Shown: positions 10,285-50,568 of the stretch, one piece after another | Position numbering within the stretch: position 1 is the stretch's first letter | Layout of the letters: each line of letters begins with the position of its first letter | Assembly: GCF_055900595.2 (NCBI RefSeq) | Contig: NZ_CM148325.1 | Reading direction: 5' to 3' (one strand) | DNA length: 64,000 bases | The notes under the pieces: generated by a model | What the model was told of the DNA's origin: nothing | The model's input: the letters and a program-made list of their open reading frames with translations, nothing else | Database searches by the model: none | Translations under genes and position numbers: made by a program

Positions 10285-10929
10285 ATGATGCAACCATCAA
10301 TCAAACCTGCTGACGAGCATTCAGCTGGCGATATCATTGCGCGCATCGGCAGCCTGACGCGTATGCTGCGCGACAGTTTGCGGGAACTGGGGCTGGATCA
10401 GGCCATTGCCGAAGCGGCGGAAGCCATCCCCGATGCGCGCGATCGTTTGTACTATGTTGTGCAGATGACCGCCCAGGCTGCGGAGCGGGCGCTGAACAGT
10501 GTTGAGGCGTCACAACCGCATCAGGATCAAATGGAGAAATCAGCAAAAGCGTTAACCCAACGTTGGGATGACTGGTTTGCCGATCCGATTGACCTTGCCG
10601 ACGCCCGTGAACTGGTAACAGATACACGACAATTTCTGGCAGATGTACCCGCGCATACCAGCTTTACTAACGCGCAACTGCTGGAAATCATGATGGCGCA
10701 GGATTTTCAGGATCTCACCGGGCAGGTCATTAAGCGGATGATGGATGTCATTCAGGAGATCGAACGCCAGTTGCTGATGGTGCTGTTGGAAAACATCCCG
10801 GAACAGGAGTCGCGTCCAAAACGTGAAAACCAGAGTTTGCTTAATGGACCTCAGGTCGATACCAGCAAAGCCGGTGTGGTAGCCAGTCAGGATCAGGTGG
10901 ACGATTTGTTGGATAGTCTTGGATTTTGA
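10285..10929 (+). CDS. cheZ: CheY-P phosphatase CheZ (214 aa)
   Basis: ORF track 10255..10929 trimmed to ATG 10285 ([22 protein letters not shown]...); 10255 start would overlap cheY. Confidence 0.94.
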
Positions 10930-10937
10930 TTTGTATT

Positions 10938-11005
10938 GCCTGATGTGGCGTGACCACGTCATATCAGGCGGTCTGATAAGGCGATGACGCCGCATCCGAC
11001 AAACG
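10938..11005. repeat. REP-type extragenic palindromes between cheZ and flhB
   Basis: Imperfect palindromes gcctgatgtggcgtgaccacgtcatatcaggcg and ggcgatgacgccgcatccgacaaacg with the GCCGCATCCG REP core. Confidence 0.6.
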
Positions 11006-11130
11006 CACACTATGCTTGATGTGTGGCAGCAAAAGCCCTAAATCCCGCCTGTTTTGCCCCTTACTCAAACCATTGAACGCTTTGCGCTCTGGCATCATTC
11101 ACGCTTAATACTCTTTCCAGGATTGGCGAC

Positions 11131-12279
11131 GTGTCTGACGAGAGCGACGACAAAACAGAAGCCCCCACACCTCACCGACTAGAAAAAGCGCGGGAAGAGG
11201 GGCAAATCCCGCGTTCCCGTGAACTGACCTCACTGCTGATTTTGCTGGTGGGCGTTAGTGTTATCTGGTTTGGCGGTGTGTCGCTGGCCCGTCGATTGTC
11301 GGGCATGCTCTCCGCTGGGCTGCATTTTGATCACAGTATTATCAAAGACCCGAATCTGATCCTCGGGCAGATTATTCTGCTGATCAGAGAAGCCATGCTG
11401 GCGCTGCTGCCACTGATTAGCGGCGTGGTACTGGTGGCGCTCATTTCTCCGGTCATGCTGGGAGGGCTGGTATTTAGCGGCAAATCCTTGCAGCCGAAGT
11501 TTTCCAAACTCAACCCGCTACCGGGCATTAAACGGATGTTCTCGGCTCAGACTGGCGCGGAGTTGCTTAAAGCAATTTTGAAAACCATCCTGGTTGGCAG
11601 CGTGACGGGGTTTTTTCTCTGGCATCACTGGCCGCAGATGATGCGCTTAATGGCCGAGTCTCCGATTACCGCCATGGGTAATGCGATGGATTTGGTAGGG
11701 CTATGCGCACTGCTGGTGGTGCTTGGTGTCATTCCAATGGTGGGATTTGACGTCTTTTTCCAAATCTTCAGCCACCTGAAAAAGCTGCGAATGTCGCGGC
11801 AGGATATTCGTGATGAGTTCAAACAAAGCGAAGGCGACCCCCATGTTAAAGGACGGATCCGTCAGATGCAGCGAGCTGCCGCACGGCGTCGGATGATGGC
11901 CGATGTGCCGAAAGCGGATGTCATTGTCAATAACCCGACCCACTATTCGGTAGCGTTGCAGTATGACGAAAACAAAATGAGCGCACCGAAAGTGGTCGCT
12001 AAAGGTGCAGGGCTGGTCGCGCTGCGCATTCGTGAAATTGGCGCTGAAAATAACGTCCCGACGCTTGAAGCGCCGCCGCTGGCGCGAGCGCTGTATCGAC
12101 ATGCGGAGATTGGTCAACAAATCCCGGGTCAACTGTACGCCGCGGTGGCGGAAGTGCTGGCCTGGGTCTGGCAACTGAAACGCTGGCGTCTGGCTGGTGG
12201 ACAGCGCCCTGTACAACCTACTCATCTTCCGGTGCCGGAAGCCCTGGATTTTATTAACGAGAAACCGACCCATGAGTAA
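11131..12279 (+). CDS. flhB: Flagellar type III export gate protein FlhB (382 aa), GTG start
   Basis: ORF track; MSDESDDKTEAPTPHRLEKAREEGQIPRSRELTSL... Confidence 0.95.
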   Translation: MSDESDDKTEAPTPHRLEKAREEGQIPRSRELTSLLILLVGVSVIWFGGVSLARRLSGMLSAGLHFDHSIIKDPNLILGQIILLIREAMLALLPLISGVVLVALISPVMLGGLVFSGKSLQPKFSKLNPLPGIKRMFSAQTGAELLKAILKTILVGSVTGFFLWHHWPQMMRLMAESPITAMGNAMDLVGLCALLVVLGVIPMVGFDVFFQIFSHLKKLRMSRQDIRDEFKQSEGDPHVKGRIRQMQRAAARRRMMADVPKADVIVNNPTHYSVALQYDENKMSAPKVVAKGAGLVALRIREIGAENNVPTLEAPPLARALYRHAEIGQQIPGQLYAAVAEVLAWVWQLKRWRLAGGQRPVQPTHLPVPEALDFINEKPTHE

Positions 12280-15472: not shown

Positions 15473-15506
15473 TAAAAAAGCCTGATCAGGTAACCCTGAT
15501 CAGGCT
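15473..15506 (-). terminator. Rho-independent terminator downstream of argS
   Basis: Perfect 12-bp stem agcctgatcagg/cctgatcaggct with taac loop; A-run on + strand gives U-tract on minus transcript. Confidence 0.75.
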
Positions 15507-15526
15507 TCACTCTCACGAAAAATCGA

Positions 15527-22744: not shown

Positions 22745-22799
22745 GACGTGAAAAGCGCCCGGAAACGGGCGCTAAATTGCTGAGAAAGTGTGCTTTGTT

Positions 22800-22902
22800 C
22801 ATGCCGGATGCGACGTGAACGCCTTATCCGGCCTACAAAATTGTGCAAATTCAATATATTGCAGGAGATGAGTAGGCCTGATAAGCGTAGCGCATCAGGC
22901 AG
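22800..22902. repeat. REP/BIME cluster between convergent torZ and cmoB
   Basis: tgccggatgcgacgtgaacgccttatccggcctac and taggcctgataagcgtagcgcatcaggca palindromic REP units. Confidence 0.65.
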
Positions 22903-22951
22903 TTTTTGCGTTTGTCATCTATCTCAGCGCCCGGAAATGGGCGCTAAATTT

Positions 22952-30385: not shown

Positions 30386-30443
30386 TAAGATTCAGGGAAT
30401 ATTCATTGCCGACTGGCAATTACTAGGGCAGGGAGTGCCTCTG

Positions 30444-31952
30444 ATGACAATGTTAAAAACAGTAAGATTCTGGCTCGTCGAATTAATACTGCTGGCAGTT
30501 GTGTTGCCCGTATTAGCGATAATTTTTTACTCCTGTACTCTATTTTTTCCTTTTTACGCCGAAGGCGGTATCTTGGAGTTTAGCGCCACACTAATAGTGA
30601 CTGCTTTAAGTGGTCTGGCGTTAGGAAGGGTAAGAAGTGCCTTTGTCCCGCTAAATTTATCATTCATTTCCCTGATCCTCCCGGAAACCCTGCTACTTTT
30701 TTATACACTTGTTGTCTGGCTAACATTACTTATTATTACGGATAGTGAGTTTAATAGTGGACTATTTTATACCGGGCAGGATTGGTTGGGCATTTTCAGC
30801 CTATTAACTGAGGCTGCGACGGAAGACGAATTTTTTACGCCATCGTTAATGCAGGTGGCTACGCCTGCGATACCGGCTGTGGGTATTCTGGTCTATATTG
30901 TCTCACTGACGCATGCTGCAAGAGGGCGAAACCGGCTGACGAACATTGTAGGATGGCGTTATATCGTAATCCCGGTTTTAATGGCGGTTATAAGCATTGC
31001 GGGATTACTCGCATGGCAAATCCATGACAGAAGTGAAAGAAAAGTGGTCAGTGTGCCAGAAACGCAGCTTTCTGAGCGCTTGGCATTAAAAGATTATTCT
31101 CCCTTTACCGCCAATAATAAATTAACACACCTCAATGAACAGGCCACGCTGGCGATAGCGAGTAACTGGCCGCAACTGAATGGCGCGACAGCGCTCTATC
31201 CACTGTATGCCTCGATGGCGCAAATGGTTTATCGCAATCTGAATGAGGAAAGTGCCGAGGATTATATAAAGTGCTGGAAAACCCAGGGAGCCTACACAGC
31301 TTTGATAGAAGGGCGCGCGGATCTTATTTTTGTCGCCGAACCCTCTGATGAGCAACGAGAGCAGGCGCGTAACAGTGGCGTTGGTTTGCATTTTTATCCT
31401 CTGGCGCGAGAGGCTTTTGTTTTTGTCACTCATAAAGATAATCCGGTTACAGCGTTGAGTGATAAACAGATCCGCCAAATCTATTCTGGCGACATCAATA
31501 ACTGGCAGGATGTTGGCGGGCGCGACGCACGGATCATGCCTTTTCAGCGACCGGAAGGCTCAGGTAGCCAGACAATTATGTTAGCGGCTGTGATGAAGCA
31601 GGAAAAAATGCGCAAACCGCTGGAAACGGAACGGATAAGCGAAATGCAGGGGTTGATACGTAATGTTGCCAGCTATCAGAACAGTACAAATGCTTTGGGG
31701 TATACGTTCCGGTACTACTCAACACAAATGCACCACAGCGATAATCTCCGCTTGCTAGCGGTAAATGGTATTGCGCCAACGGCAGAAAATATTCGCAGCG
31801 GGAAGTACCCCTATACGGTAACGGTTTATATGGTTAGCGCGGGAAGACCTGACGCGCAGGTGCAAAAAATAATCGACTGGTTTTTGAGTGCGCAGGGGCA
31901 GAAAATGGTCGCTGAAACCGGATATATCCCGTTGGGAAAATCAACCAGGTGA
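30444..31952 (+). CDS. Accessory membrane protein: about 190-aa multi-pass TM region fused to a C-terminal PstS-like periplasmic binding domain (502 aa from ATG 30444); function unknown
   Basis: ORF track 30435..31952; ATG 30444 follows RBS gggag; 5-6 hydrophobic segments then PstS-like residues (GSGSQT, YTFRYY); not recalled in K-12. Confidence 0.7.
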   Translation: MTMLKTVRFWLVELILLAVVLPVLAIIFYSCTLFFPFYAEGGILEFSATLIVTALSGLALGRVRSAFVPLNLSFISLILPETLLLFYTLVVWLTLLIITDSEFNSGLFYTGQDWLGIFSLLTEAATEDEFFTPSLMQVATPAIPAVGILVYIVSLTHAARGRNRLTNIVGWRYIVIPVLMAVISIAGLLAWQIHDRSERKVVSVPETQLSERLALKDYSPFTANNKLTHLNEQATLAIASNWPQLNGATALYPLYASMAQMVYRNLNEESAEDYIKCWKTQGAYTALIEGRADLIFVAEPSDEQREQARNSGVGLHFYPLAREAFVFVTHKDNPVTALSDKQIRQIYSGDINNWQDVGGRDARIMPFQRPEGSGSQTIMLAAVMKQEKMRKPLETERISEMQGLIRNVASYQNSTNALGYTFRYYSTQMHHSDNLRLLAVNGIAPTAENIRSGKYPYTVTVYMVSAGRPDAQVQKIIDWFLSAQGQKMVAETGYIPLGKSTR

Positions 31953-31964
31953 ACATACGTAAAT

Positions 31965-31993
31965 GGCAAAAACCATCACCAATGGTTTTTGCC
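31965..31993. terminator. Strong hairpin between convergent accessory ORF and yebB (putative bidirectional terminator)
   Basis: Perfect 12-bp stem ggcaaaaaccat / atggtttttgcc with cacc loop; no clean U-tract on either side. Confidence 0.55.
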
Positions 31994-32029
31994 ATGATAT
32001 GCGACTCACACTGCTTCTGGCAGCCTGGT

Positions 32030-32602
32030 TTAGTCATTATGACTGGCATGGATTAACGTCAACCCCGGATGATGCCACAAACTGGCTGGCGTGACGGTTT
32101 TACGCTCCCACGGAATAGAACCTAAGAACCAGAATTTCCAGAAAGTGAGTTTTGCATTTGGATTGCTGTTTAGCAGTTCTCCAAACGTCTCTATTTCACC
32201 CACCGGAATACATAACGCCTCTTTATAAATATCAAAAACGAATTTTGAACAGAACTGGCGGGAAGATTCGTATTTAAAACCGGTGTGGTAGAACTTATGC
32301 AACCGGGCAGGGACCTTTTCGACAAGAGCAAGTTTCTGCTCTGCGGTTAAACCTCCTGCCAGGCGGCGAACACCGTAGCGTTGCTCGGTCGACCGTTCAA
32401 TAAATCGTGACAAAGTTGTGATTGTGGAGAGCGGAACTCGACTCTCCGCAACCAGGTAATCATCACCGTCATGTCCGATGATTATCCCCACATGGTTGCT
32501 CCAGCATTTCGAGGCTGCAGAGATTTGCCCAAACAGGCGAGCACCGATGCAGGTAAAAACAATATCACCGGTTTCATATTTAGCTGGGTAATTTATTTTC
32601 AC
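32030..32602 (-). CDS. yebB: YebB, permuted papain-fold (NlpC/P60-superfamily, YiiX/YaeF-like) putative amidase (190 aa)
   Basis: ORF track; [46 protein letters not shown]... Cys/His pair; no signal peptide. Confidence 0.8.
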
Positions 32603-32695
32603 TATATCAATCCATTATTTATATATAAAACAGCATCTATCTTTCGTGATGGTAAAGCATTAGCATTGTATTGTAATAATGACAAGGAATGTTTT

Positions 32696-33520
32696 ATGCG
32701 GTTATTTATTAATGTGATAATGATAGTTTCGATCAGTCAATGCGTGAATGTATTTGCTCAAGATAATGTCATTCGCTATCCCTGGCGATATGGACGTATT
32801 TCTTTAAATGAGAATAATGAGTTTGTGCCTCAAATTATTCATATGCGTGATGATATCTACGGCGTGGGTGAAGTTGGTGCAAGCCTTAACGATGCGAGAA
32901 TGGCGCAAAGTGGTGTCACCGTGAGGCTTAGCGTTATACAGCAGGGGCAGGTGGTGAATGCTTTACTGGATTTCTACAATAGCAATAATCAACCTGCTTA
33001 TATATTTGAAGGCGGTTTATTGTCCTGCAATAAAGCCTTTGACATCACAACAAACAACATTGTCCTTGATGGGATGTGTGGAATTTATGATGGGGTCGAT
33101 GGCTGGCAAGTTATTCCTGCGGGTGAGCATTATAAAGAATCGTTTTCACTCACTCAGGCTTTTGAATTCTTGCCGGGAAAACATCATTATAAAATTAATG
33201 CCGGAGGTTTTATCATCAGAGTCGGGGATGATATTTTTGCAAGAGAAGATGCCGAAAGCATTCTTTTTGATTTGATTAACTGGCGATATGGCTATGTGCT
33301 AAAAAGTTATGAAAGGGTGTCAAAGGGGGATTTGATGGCAGGATATTATGCTCTGTATGAATACTCAGGCGCTGACATAATTGATGAGTATGATATTTAC
33401 TCAAACCAGGTGTCGATTGATCTTAATGGTGACGAGTTAGCACATACGGAGTCCTATCAGTGGCGAATTGATAGCGGAATGATCCCGGAAAAATTCAGCG
33501 TTCAGGGACTCGCTGAATGA
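32696..33520 (+). CDS. Accessory Sec-signal periplasmic/secreted protein of unknown function (274 aa from ATG 32696)
   Basis: ORF track 32471..33520 trimmed to ATG 32696 after RBS aagga; N-terminus MRLFINVIMIVSISQCVNVFA-QD is a signal peptide with VFA cleavage motif; AT-rich. Confidence 0.65.
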   Translation: MRLFINVIMIVSISQCVNVFAQDNVIRYPWRYGRISLNENNEFVPQIIHMRDDIYGVGEVGASLNDARMAQSGVTVRLSVIQQGQVVNALLDFYNSNNQPAYIFEGGLLSCNKAFDITTNNIVLDGMCGIYDGVDGWQVIPAGEHYKESFSLTQAFEFLPGKHHYKINAGGFIIRVGDDIFAREDAESILFDLINWRYGYVLKSYERVSKGDLMAGYYALYEYSGADIIDEYDIYSNQVSIDLNGDELAHTESYQWRIDSGMIPEKFSVQGLAE

Positions 33521-33557
33521 ATCGTCCTCTACCTGCTTGCCAGATACAGAGGCGCGG

Positions 33558-34127
33558 ATGAATTTATCAAGCGTATTCAATCAGCTTTTAATCTCATTAG
33601 CTCTTGCCGGGACGTTGATATCAAGCAGCTATCTCATGGAAGCTCACTACCCGCGTTTCAGGAAGCCAATTGCGTTCTTTTACTTCTTCTTAGCAATTTA
33701 TACCAGTTATGCTGCCGTTCTGGAGTATGAGTACCACCGCACTAGCTTGACTACGCTCGCAAAAGTTTCTTCGGTTCGTTATACCAGTAATTTTGAGCGT
33801 AGCGCCTCGCACTCCTGCAATTTACTGCGGGGAGGAAGGATTGATTGCACGGGGCTGTATGCCTATGACCTGACCTGGCAGATTGACGGTAAGACCTGGA
33901 ATTTGCATGTTGAGGACAAGCGTATAAAACCAGGATTCACCATGTGCGTGAAGGTTGTAAAAGATCGCCCCGCCATCGGGAAATCCTGTGAAAACGCGTT
34001 TTTCAATGTCAGCCCTTTGCCGATTCTGATAGCTATATGGGCAATCAGCGCATTTATATTTGCGGTCTTACTCCTTCACAGACTAAAAAAATGCCGCAAA
34101 TGGAAGCACGCCAGCAAGGGGCGTTGA
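33558..34127 (+). CDS. Accessory inner-membrane protein, 2 N-terminal TM + Cys-containing loop + C-terminal TM and basic tail (189 aa from ATG 33558)
   Basis: ORF track 33537..34127 (TTG) trimmed to ATG 33558 after RBS gagg; hydrophobic segments at about residues 8-27, 36-56, 163-183; 37 nt after upstream ORF. Confidence 0.6.
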   Translation: MNLSSVFNQLLISLALAGTLISSSYLMEAHYPRFRKPIAFFYFFLAIYTSYAAVLEYEYHRTSLTTLAKVSSVRYTSNFERSASHSCNLLRGGRIDCTGLYAYDLTWQIDGKTWNLHVEDKRIKPGFTMCVKVVKDRPAIGKSCENAFFNVSPLPILIAIWAISAFIFAVLLLHRLKKCRKWKHASKGR

Positions 34128-34229
34128 AAAATTGGGCATTAGAAGTGTGATGTAAGGGGGATTCATACAGAATTTCTGATGCTGTGAGCAAAAGGATTAT
34201 CATTTCTGAAATGATTTAATATCATCCCT

Positions 34230-34915: not shown

Positions 34916-35929
<1,014 letters not shown>

Positions 35930-35967
35930 GTTGAATAAGGTATTCAAGCCGCTTCCGACATTGGCGA

Positions 35968-36058
35968 TAAGCCTGATGCGACGCTGTTCGCGTCTTATCA
36001 GGCCTACCAGAAGTAGCGAACCGTAGGTCGGATAAGGCGCTCGCGCCGCATCCGACAA
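35968..36058. repeat. REP/BIME cluster between ruvB and znuB
   Basis: gcctgatgcgacgctgttcgcgtcttatcaggcctac and cgtaggtcggataaggcgctcgcgccgcatccgacaa REP units. Confidence 0.65.
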
Positions 36059-36075
36059 ATGTGTTCAGCGACAGA

Positions 36076-41053: not shown

Positions 41054-41078
41054 AAAAAGCCTCTCGCGAGGAGAGGCT
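41052..41078. terminator. Hairpin shared by convergent lpxM and pykA (U-tract on the pykA side)
   Basis: A-run then agcctctc / gagaggct stem read in sequence. Confidence 0.55.
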
Positions 41079-41142
41079 TCCGCCGTGTGATAAGTTCAAG
41101 TTTGCTTCAGAAGATTCGAAATCTGTTGAACTATCATTGAAC

Positions 41143-41180
41143 TGTAGGCCGGATGAGGCGTTTTCGCCGCATCCGGCAAC
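41143..41180. repeat. REP element downstream of pykA
   Basis: tgtaggccggatgaggcgttttcgccgcatccggcaac palindromic REP unit. Confidence 0.65.
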
Positions 41181-41184
41181 GTAC

Positions 41185-42627
41185 TTACTCTACAGTTAAA
41201 ATACGCGTGGTATTAGTAGAACCCACGGTACTCATCACGTCGCCCTGGGTGACAATCACCAGGTCACCAGACATCAAGTAACCTTTATCGCGCAGCAGAT
41301 TAACCGCTTCGCTGGCAGCTGCTACGCCGTCATTAGCGCTATCAAAGTGCACCGGCGTAACGCCACGATAGAGAGCAGTCAGATTCAGCGTACGTTCATG
41401 GCGCGACATAGCGAAAATCGGCAGACCGGAGCTGATACGGGAGGTCATCAGAGCGGTACGACCCGATTCGGTCATAGTGATGATCGCCGTAACGCCTTTC
41501 AGGTGGTTAGCCGCGTACATCGCTGACATGGCGATAGCTTCTTCCACATTGTCGAACTGAACGTCCAGACGGTGTTTAGAAACGTTGATGCTCGGGATTT
41601 TTTCAGCACCCAGGCAAACACGCGCCATGGCTGCAACGGTTTCTGAAGGATACTGACCAGCAGCAGTTTCTGCAGACAGCATCACAGCGTCAGTACCATC
41701 CAGAACGGCGTTTGCTACGTCCATGACTTCCGCACGCGTCGGCATCGGGTTAGTAATCATTGACTCCATCATCTGGGTCGCAGTGATTACCGCGCGGTTT
41801 AGTTGACGTGCACGACGGATCAACGCTTTCTGAATGCCGACCAGTTCCGGGTCGCCAATTTCCACACCGAGGTCGCCGCGAGCAACCATTACCACGTCAG
41901 AGGCGAGGATGATGTCATCCATTGCATCCTGGCTGCAAACGGCTTCCGCACGTTCAACTTTGGCGACAATTTTTGCATCACAACCTGCGTCGCGAGCCAG
42001 GCGGCGTGCATAGTTCAGATCTTCGCCGCAGCGCGGGAAGGAAACAGCCAGGTAATCTACGCCAATCAACGCCGCAGTCTTAATGTCTGCTTTGTCTTTT
42101 TCGGTCAGCGCTTCAGCCGACAAACCACCGCCGAGTTTGTTGATACCTTTATTGTTGGAGAGCGGACCGCCGACGGTCACTTCGGTGAATACTTTCATGC
42201 CTTGAACTTCCAGTACTTTTAACTGGACGCGACCATCGTCCAACAGCAGGATGTCACCAGGCACGACGTCAGCAGGCAGGCCTTTGTAGTCGATACCGAC
42301 TTTTTCTTTGTCGCCTTCACCTTTACCCAGGTTGGCGTCGAGCAGGAATTTATCCCCAATATTGAGGAAAACTTTGCCTTCTTTAAAGGTGGATACACGA
42401 ATTTTGGGCCCCTGGAGGTCACCCAGAATAGCCACATGACGCCCCAGTTTTGCGGCAATTTCACGAACTTTATCCGCGCGCATTTTGTGATCTTCAGGAG
42501 AGCCGTGAGAAAAGTTCATACGTACAACGTTTGCACCCGCAGCGATAACTTTCTCAAGGTTATTATCGCGATCTGTTGCTGGGCCTAACGTGGTAACGAT
42601 TTTTGTTCTGCGAAGCCTTCTGGACAT
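41185..42627 (-). CDS. pykA: Pyruvate kinase II PykA (480 aa)
   Basis: ORF track 41185..42768 trimmed to ATG at 42627 ([27 protein letters not shown]...). Confidence 0.95.
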
Positions 42628-48161: not shown

Positions 48162-48180
48162 AAGTCAAAATGCCCGATCG

Positions 48181-48206
48181 AGGATCGGGCATTTTTGTAG
48201 CATTTT
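48181..48206. terminator. Bidirectional terminator between convergent eda and purT
   Basis: gcccgatc / gatcgggc hairpin, A-run before and tttttg after. Confidence 0.75.
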
Positions 48207-50265: not shown

Positions 50266-50352
50266 CGTCGGCGGATGCGGCGCGAGTGCCTGATCCGCCC
50301 TACAAGGCACCTCAATCGTAGGCCTGGGAAGACGCAACAGCGTCGCATCGGG
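50266..50352. repeat. REP/BIME cluster between yebF and yebE
   Basis: cggcggatgcggcgcgagtgcctgatccgccctaca and gtaggcctgggaagacgcaacagcgtcgcatcgggcaa units. Confidence 0.6.
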
Positions 50353-50568
50353 CAATCAGCATCAAACAATGCCACTCAAAACGTCAAATTACGTTCACCT
50401 AAAATACCCTTATCACCTGATATACAGTGAACACCTTACCTGGCGCGAATTTCTTTGAATAACGGCCTACCGACCCGCTTATTTGCGCATCTTTTGTCTC
50501 GATATACATTTTCTGACATCCTCATCCGCTATGCTACAGGCACTAAAAATGGTTATTGAGGAGCAAAT

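Follow-up and report, generated by a model that had tools for sequence, protein, structure and literature searches.

Palindromic units lie in the gap between the convergent genes ruvB and znuB of this DNA, and similar units recur at four other sites in the same 64,000 nucleotides (the whole stretch analysed, called the window below). The question is whether these palindromes belong to a known repeat family, as an earlier note had proposed, and what they may do after the genes that they follow. E. coli REP/BIME elements have been on record since 1984, and the REP or palindromic unit, with its types Y, Z1 and Z2, is said to go back to Stern in 1984 and Gilson in 1991. Our results indicate that all five sites very probably belong to the E. 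coli family of REPs (palindromic units) and are organised as BIMEs. This biology is not new, and the positions, types and polymorphism of the sites are textbook. Recognising REPs here avoids over-reading the hairpins as new regulators, and the five-site finding itself is of little consequence. The only part worth follow-up is the footprint of one element class, BIME-1, which could matter more.

The window is a piece of the E. coli chromosome from cheA to letA with about 97% identity to K-12, in which BLAST places it at about 1.916-1.98 Mb in reverse orientation. Genes were named by comparing the open reading frames of the window with the annotations of K-12 and 2017-02-2CC. The gene order begins with motAB-cheAW, tar, tap, cheRBYZ, flhBAE, yecT, argS, yecM, cutC, torYZ and cmoBA, continues with yecNED, aspS, nudB, yebC, ruvC, a non-K-12 block, ruvAB, znuBC/A, mepM, lpxM and pykA, and ends with hexR, zwf-edd-eda, purT, yebGF, yebE and ptrB through letAB. 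Rfam matches in the window include MicL, RyeA/SdsR and C0465. Identity to K-12 is a mosaic: most 1-kb bins are at about 94-99%, and values fall near torZ-cmoB and ruvB. A 601-bp query around site 1 (10730-11330, cheZ-flhB) is 100% identical to K-12, and the ruvB-znuB surroundings (547 bp) are about 92-93% identical to K-12-type genomes. The mosaic suggests recombination patches adjoining the variable REP sites. The corresponding region of the K-12 RefSeq record has no REP features annotated, and the REP units were therefore called from sequence.

Site 3, the 146 bp that separate the convergent ruvAB and znuCB units, is nearly all BIME, from 35926 to 36057. On its layout, this site is a BIME-2 array of 1.5 units, namely a remnant Y, an inverted Z2, a 15-nt linker and a Y:

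35926-35960, + strand: decayed Y remnant, 10 edits from Y, stem lost (-5.8 kcal/mol, z -1.2)
35961-35970, no strand: head-to-head linker TTGGCGATAA from remnant Y to Z2, 10 nt, which recurs between units of the O157 and B arrays
35971-36007, - strand: Z2-type REP, GTAGGCCTGATAAGACGCGAACAGCGTCGCATCAGGC on the - strand, 3 edits from Z2 (-21.5 kcal/mol, z -5.8)
36008-36022, no strand: tail-to-tail S-type linker CAGAAGTAGCGAACC, 15 nt
36023-36057, + strand: Y-type REP GTAGGTCGGATAAGGCGCTCGCGCCGCATCCGACA, 4 edits from Y (-18.8 kcal/mol, z -3.3)

BIME-2 consists of Y and Z2 with short linkers, is amplified in tandem and is a gyrase target; the last property was reportedly described by Espeli and Boccard in 1997. 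Site 3 resembles it in the alternating orientation of Y and Z2, in its 15-nt and 10-nt linkers, and in a period of about 97 bp with a unit number that varies among strains: this strain and K-12 have 1.5 units, O157:H7 has 2.5 and E. coli B has 3.5. It differs in that the array here has only 1.5 units, the first Y being decayed and overlapping the ruvB stop codon (TTAA), which occupies the GTAG position. The remnant is recognisable as Y because K-12, O157 and B each hold a better-kept, 5'-truncated Y at the orthologous position. A terminator scan of the ruvB-znuB gap found no intrinsic terminator.

The family identity of the units was examined by motif search, consensus scan, folding, covariation and copy number. 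The core motif GCCGGATGCGGCG with at most 2 mismatches matched 13 times in the window, compared with 2.7 +/- 1.7 expected, and 0/100 shuffles reached 13. Ten of these matches are inside the five reported sites. The remaining three (2327, 22335 and 49364) lie within cheA, torZ and purT, which is chance level, and the exact core occurs once, at 41165-41177. Edit distances were then scanned on both strands against the Y and Z2 consensus (Nunvar 2010, Table 1, PMC2817692). Eight units were 0-7 edits from the Y, Z2 or Z1 consensus, whereas the best values in 60 dinucleotide-preserving shuffles of the whole window were 9 (Y), 10 (Z2) and 7 (Z1) edits. The Z1 consensus used in the scan is presumably right; an exact 30/30 match recurring at 20 or more loci backs it. 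Two units with 10 edits each, 10937-10973 (-) and 35926-35960 (+), are at the noise boundary by sequence alone.

The folding results agreed with the scan. Nine of the ten units folded at -12.6 to -25.2 kcal/mol, the exception being the remnant 35926-35960, and 6/10 units tested were more stable than all 200 of their own shuffles. With the stems aligned in one orientation, 93.5% of cells paired, compared with 24-41% with slid partners. Compensatory double changes were present in 10 stem cells, for example G-C to U-A where Y differs from Z, and none of 500 shuffles matched this. The stem bubble, alignment columns 14-15 (mostly AA) opposite 31-32 (mostly GC), is unpaired in most units. A 43-nt query spanning a single Y unit matched at least 40 places in each of the 5,425 genomes with any match. 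The median for BIME-1 was 17-18 places per genome, with 17-40 places detectable by megablast. A generic inverted-repeat search recovered 41148-41177 as the only REP because REP stems are short and interrupted. The earlier reading of the five palindromic sites as REP/BIME is borne out by consensus match, folding, covariation and copy number, all beyond their controls, and no failure on formal alignment appeared. The positions given for the sites were right within a few bases, with one omission, the remnant Y at 35926-35960.

Like E. coli REPs, the units are 30-37 nt long and lie after genes, and they have a GCC(G/T)GATG...CATC(C/A)GGC stem with an internal AA/GC bubble and a family size of hundreds of copies per genome. 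Nothing essential sets them apart from that family, although three units are decayed (no GTAG, 7-10 edits). GTAG stands 5' of the stem in 7/10 units and is missing in both site-1 units (GACC, GGCG) and in the remnant at site 3 (TTAA). REP unit and BIME definitions are also given in Ton-Hoang 2012 (PMC3333891). The same work showed binding, cleavage and strand transfer by TnpA-REP in vitro; the enzyme needs GTAG for binding and an unpaired stem bubble, takes a single-strand substrate and cleaves between C and T (PMC3333891). The three units that lack GTAG, both at site 1 and the remnant 35926-35960, are probably inert relics.

The units at sites 1 (cheZ/flhB), 4 (lpxM/pykA) and 5 (yebF/yebE) are as follows:

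10937-10973, - strand: site 1, decayed Z2/Y-like unit without GTAG, 10 edits (-25.2 kcal/mol, z -6.1)
10967-11001, + strand: site 1, decayed Y-like unit without GTAG, 7 edits from Y (-12.6 kcal/mol)
41144-41178, + strand: site 4, solitary Y-type REP, 3 edits from Y (-24.6 kcal/mol, z -5.4)
50270-50303, - strand: site 5, decayed Y-type REP, 7 edits from Y (-19.3 kcal/mol)
50304-50317, no strand: site 5, tail-to-tail linker, 14 nt
50318-50354, + strand: site 5, Z2-type REP, 5 edits from Z2 (-18.7 kcal/mol, z -4.5)

The left unit of site 1 is a near-perfect 17-bp hairpin that starts 5 nt past the cheZ stop codon, and the tails of the two units overlap by 7 nt. Site 5 has the BIME-2 layout (Y, Z2) in decayed form. 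Both sites hardly vary in length. At least 80% of the query was covered in 5,274/5,426 genomes at site 1, which is near-invariant among the rows sampled, and in 5,424/5,426 at site 5, which is fixed. Judged by their units, sites 1 and 5 are decayed, length-fixed pairs, and these decayed copies are probably immobile relics. At site 4, 7 nt separate the stem of the solitary Y from the pykA stop codon, and the unit lies upstream of a terminator-like hairpin at 41055-41081 (-). Site 4 is the same in 4,937/5,426 genomes, and about 9% differ. Strain C5 is one example: in the stretch orthologous to 41054-41184 it has an alpha-mannosidase accessory gene and a different terminator hairpin instead of the REP gap.

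The copy number at site 3 was compared across strains, as the earlier note had suggested for each site, and it ranged from 1.5 to 3.5 units. Of the 59 chromosomes in a rank-spread sample, 43 matched the length seen here, 9 were expanded and 7 were interrupted; four of the expansions were about +98 bp, four +194 bp and one +70 bp. IS1397 is present at this site in about 12% of genomes. In strain AR_0089 (about 960-2560 of the compared stretch, orthologous to 35930-36075), IS1397 is in the Z2 loop. The neighbouring Y unit of this strain also contains a fragment of about 60 nt that resembles an IS621 end and is flanked by a GTCGGATAAGGC repeat. IS621 is a bridge-RNA recombinase element of the IS110 family. 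Excision of whole BIME-1 elements, expansion and contraction of BIME-2 and insertion of IS1397 were all reportedly described by Bachellier et al. in 1997.

Site 2, between torZ and cmoB, has a different structure. In the order of its parts it is a complete BIME-1, with an inverted Y, an IHF-type L linker, a Z1 and A/B flanks:

22754-22778, + strand: terminator hairpin copy 1 plus AAATT, AGCGCCCGGAAACGGGCGCTAAATT, 24/25 identical to 22926-22950
22779-22801, + strand: BIME-1 A-side flank, an inverted, imperfect copy of the B side, conserved at the 22 BIME-1 loci
22802-22836, - strand: Y-type REP, 1 edit from Y
22837-22871, no strand: BIME-1 L linker, 35 nt, containing ATTCAATATATTG; Rfam name ES036
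22872-22901, + strand: Z1-type REP, 0 edits from the Z1 consensus
22902-22925, + strand: BIME-1 B-side flank, conserved in BIME-1 copies
22926-22950, + strand: terminator hairpin copy 2 plus AAATT, T-run kept, direct repeat of 22754-22778

BIME-1, also called RIP or RIB, is reportedly a single-copy element of Y, an L linker with an IHF site and Z1, and is credited to Oppenheim in 1993 and to Boccard and Prentki in 1993. Site 2 resembles it in its Y, its L linker, its Z1, its A/B flanks and its single copy, and one unit was present here and at every BIME-1 locus examined. The linker motif ATTCAATATATTG (22849-22861) has one mismatch to the IHF consensus WATCAANNNNTTR and is by motif a candidate IHF site. 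In layout, the element can be aligned with the BIME-1 copies of K-12 and pitA-uspB and with 21 other loci. A terminator-like site was detected at 22926-22945, with the tail AAATTTTTAC.

The allele at site 2 differs from those of other strains in that both flanks are complete, two hairpin copies surround the element and its orientation is opposite to that of the K-12 allele, which also lacks the A flank. None of the 5,426 complete E. coli genomes covers 80% of the query for this allele (22779-22925). Even 2017-02-2CC, the closest relative by the ruvB-znuB and yebF-yebE queries, has a K-12-type allele here. The nearest full-length copy of this BIME-1 anywhere is at pitA-uspB, with 88.5% identity, and a misassembly by repeat collapse was rejected on the basis of this distance. 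Also rejected was the idea that the K-12 BIME-1 had simply been inverted between the hairpins: the hairpin loops have the same orientation (GGAAAC and GGAAAT), and the Y-side flank is unrelated to that of K-12. In a sample of the kind used for site 3, about 1/4 of genomes were empty with a single terminator hairpin, about 2/3 had the K-12 allele, and a few had IS621 in the Z1 unit. In the empty allele of strain 2016C-3878 the terminator hairpin occurs exactly once. In strain NCCP15648 (1760-3070 of the compared stretch), a full IS621 is in the Z1 unit of the torZ/cmoB BIME-1. The title of Choi et al. 2003 presents IS621 as a REP-specific insertion sequence. Recognising the repeats marks ruvB/znuB and torZ/cmoB as hot spots of length variation and of IS1397/IS621 insertion.

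All five sites stand after genes, as had been claimed: torZ/cmoB, ruvB/znuB and lpxM/pykA between convergent genes, and cheZ/flhB and yebF/yebE after the last gene of a co-directional unit. In our own gene map of the window, REPs are present at 3/8 convergent, 2/45 tandem and 0/7 divergent junctions (Fisher p = 0.014). This bias is in line with published figures, which put about 60% at convergent, 40% at tandem and 1% at divergent junctions (bioRxiv 10.64898/2026.03.23.713779). The hairpins start 5 nt past the stop codon of cheZ (within 10927-10937) and 7 nt past that of pykA (within 41178-41187), and a decayed unit overlaps that of ruvB (35926-35929). A translation-linked REP effect has been proposed within 15 nt of a stop codon (PMC12306157), and the REP distances of cheZ, pykA and ruvB fall within this range.

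The REP reading has to be weighed against other explanations of the same palindromes. Because the hairpins are GC-rich and stand after genes, they could in principle be ordinary Rho-independent terminators, or chance GC-rich inverted repeats, outside any repeat family. No REP hairpin is followed by a T-run, however, and the terminator scan flagged only the separate hairpins 22926-22945 and 41055-41081. The closeness of the units to the family consensus, which shuffles never bettered beyond 7-10 edits, and a family of at least 40 copies per genome also speak against this explanation. It was refuted by the consensus scan, the shuffles and the genomic copy number, and we regard it as hardly credible. 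A narrower explanation applies to site 2, where Rfam model RF02751 (ES036/CssrF) scores 68.4 bits at 22837-22879, above its gathering score of 37.6; this stretch could be a dedicated small-RNA gene, more than a BIME-1 linker. The match, however, coincides exactly with the L linker and the initial bases of Z1, and no promoter-like site was found at this locus. RF02751 also matches 8/10 unrelated BIME-1 loci and no empty alleles, and it therefore describes a dispersed repeat. A literature search on ES036/CssrF found no relevant paper. A small-RNA gene at this position is thus quite improbable, and annotation pipelines will call the dispersed BIME-1 linker an sRNA gene (ES036, RF02751).

A more serious alternative is that the elements are primarily host-selected punctuation at core operon boundaries (terminators, insulators or mRNA stabilisers) and not tolerated mobile repeats. 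REPs occur only after genes and are enriched at convergent junctions, they form the sole structured element at ruvB/znuB, and sites 1 and 5 are length-fixed in nearly all of the 5,426 genomes. A model REP also has terminator and stabiliser activity in published work, where REPs in 3' UTRs are described as combined terminators and stabilisers (bioRxiv 10.64898/2026.03.23.713779). Against this, the sites that vary most hold the best-conserved units, and those of fixed length hold the decayed ones. About 1/4 of sampled genomes do without the BIME at torZ/cmoB and have a plain terminator hairpin instead, the array at site 3 varies from 1.5 to 3.5 units, and three other convergent junctions of the window have simple hairpins only (31963-31995, 48167-48195). 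We therefore consider host-selected punctuation rather unlikely as the primary explanation. The phrase "core-genome punctuation" in the earlier note holds as far as the location after genes is concerned; it is not supported for conservation, since site 2 may be absent, reversed or hit by IS621, sites 3 and 4 are also polymorphic, and only the decayed sites 1 and 5 are fixed in length. The note had also contrasted the sites with an accessory block free of REPs. That block is about 3.8 kb with roughly 4 junctions. With about 5 REP sites among 60 junctions, the expectation for the block is about 0.3, and zero is therefore uninformative.

Under the preferred reading, as tolerated mobile repeats, the REPs would be palindromic, non-autonomous repeats that owe their spread and reshaping to the REP-associated tyrosine transposase (TnpA-REP/YafM), which is an HUH enzyme that acts on single strands. 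They would persist after genes since insertion there is least harmful. The tnpA-REP/yafM gene is absent from the 64-kb window; its place would be elsewhere on the chromosome. Once in place, REP hairpins in the 3' ends of the flanking mRNAs may block 3'-to-5' exonucleases, and transcribed REP hairpins may lower read-through, partly via Rho. The ruvB/znuB BIME would be the only structured barrier between two converging transcription units, because no intrinsic terminator is present there. A role as transcript barrier is most plausible at this site among the five, since its gap is without any other terminator. At the DNA level, BIME-2 Y units may be preferred gyrase sites and the BIME-1 linker may bind IHF. 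Gyrase cleavage is enriched in BIME-2 Y units at other BIME-2 loci (PMC6379681), and genome-wide work found that REP effects are context-dependent, with no general effect on half-life (bioRxiv 10.64898/2026.03.23.713779). The exonuclease, read-through, gyrase and IHF roles are extrapolated to each site from published work.

The surroundings of BIME-1 deserve more attention. In the window, the element lies between the two direct hairpin copies 22754-22778 and 22926-22950. BIME-1 copies were collected by a pattern search of metagenome contigs, and the resulting 120 stretches were grouped into 22 distinct loci including the window. At 8/22 loci, a locus-specific hairpin is directly repeated against both element ends. 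The flank alignment scores of these 8 loci were 11.5 to 22.5, compared with a 99th percentile of 10 and a maximum of 12.5 for mismatched flank pairs. The flanks adjacent to the element were enriched in stable hairpins (mean -8.6 vs -4.0 kcal/mol, p = 1e-5). The ends of BIME-1 are imperfect terminal inverted repeats of about 16 nt, with TSAGAYTGWTGACAAA on both strands, and a C-T step is present at many junctions. Two clean pairs of occupied and empty alleles were obtained, torZ/cmoB and ysgA-metE, and the second has the same pattern, with one hairpin when empty. katE-chbG was rejected as a third pair, since its alternative allele has a different hairpin and represents a replacement, not an empty site. 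For the acnB-side BIME-1 locus, no comparable E. coli allele was found.

The hairpin-element-hairpin layout suggests a target duplication of hairpin length. Tentatively, and with more doubt than confidence, we propose that BIME-1 is a small transposable element of about 150 bp that targets Rho-independent terminator hairpins for insertion, with duplication of the entire hairpin (about 19-25 nt). We infer that such a footprint would be expected from cuts immediately 3' of the hairpin on both strands. These cuts would fit the HUH chemistry of TnpA-REP, with a free 3'-OH on the target, a 5'-linked element end and a frequent junction between C and T. The torZ/cmoB allele of the window would then record a separate insertion event, because it is absent from the 5,426 genomes and opposite to the K-12 allele at the same hairpin. 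In REPINs, two inverted REPs form a unit that RAYTs mobilise (Bertels & Rainey 2011, PMC3116915). BIME-1 resembles REPINs and MITEs in being an inverted REP pair with terminal inverted repeats, flanking direct repeats and both occupied and empty alleles. It differs in that the flanking repeat is a whole locus-specific hairpin (about 19-25 nt) and not a fixed short target duplication. A review describes REPs as lacking MITE signatures (PMC3184786), and the mechanism by which REPs become inserted in vivo is still called unestablished in a 2026 preprint. No description of a hairpin-length BIME-1 footprint was found in the searchable literature, a search that fell short of key 1990s BIME papers, and the footprint may already be known. 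If true, a reproducible insertion footprint would make the REP insertion question testable with a defined target.

Some minor features of the window were also recorded. The block without alignment to K-12 (about 30386-34221) contains a protein of 505 aa that carries a periplasmic-binding-protein-like domain (PF12849), two ORFs (349 and 196 aa) that have no Pfam match and are "hypothetical" in the closest relative, and a yebB copy that shares only about 80% identity with K-12 yebB. Perfect 13-14-bp inverted repeats are present in three intergenic gaps. Two of them are at REP-less convergent junctions, orf505/yebB (31963-31995) and eda/purT (48167-48195), and the third is between yecT and argS (15478-15507). 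All three are plain terminator-like hairpins, the kind that BIME-1 appears to target.
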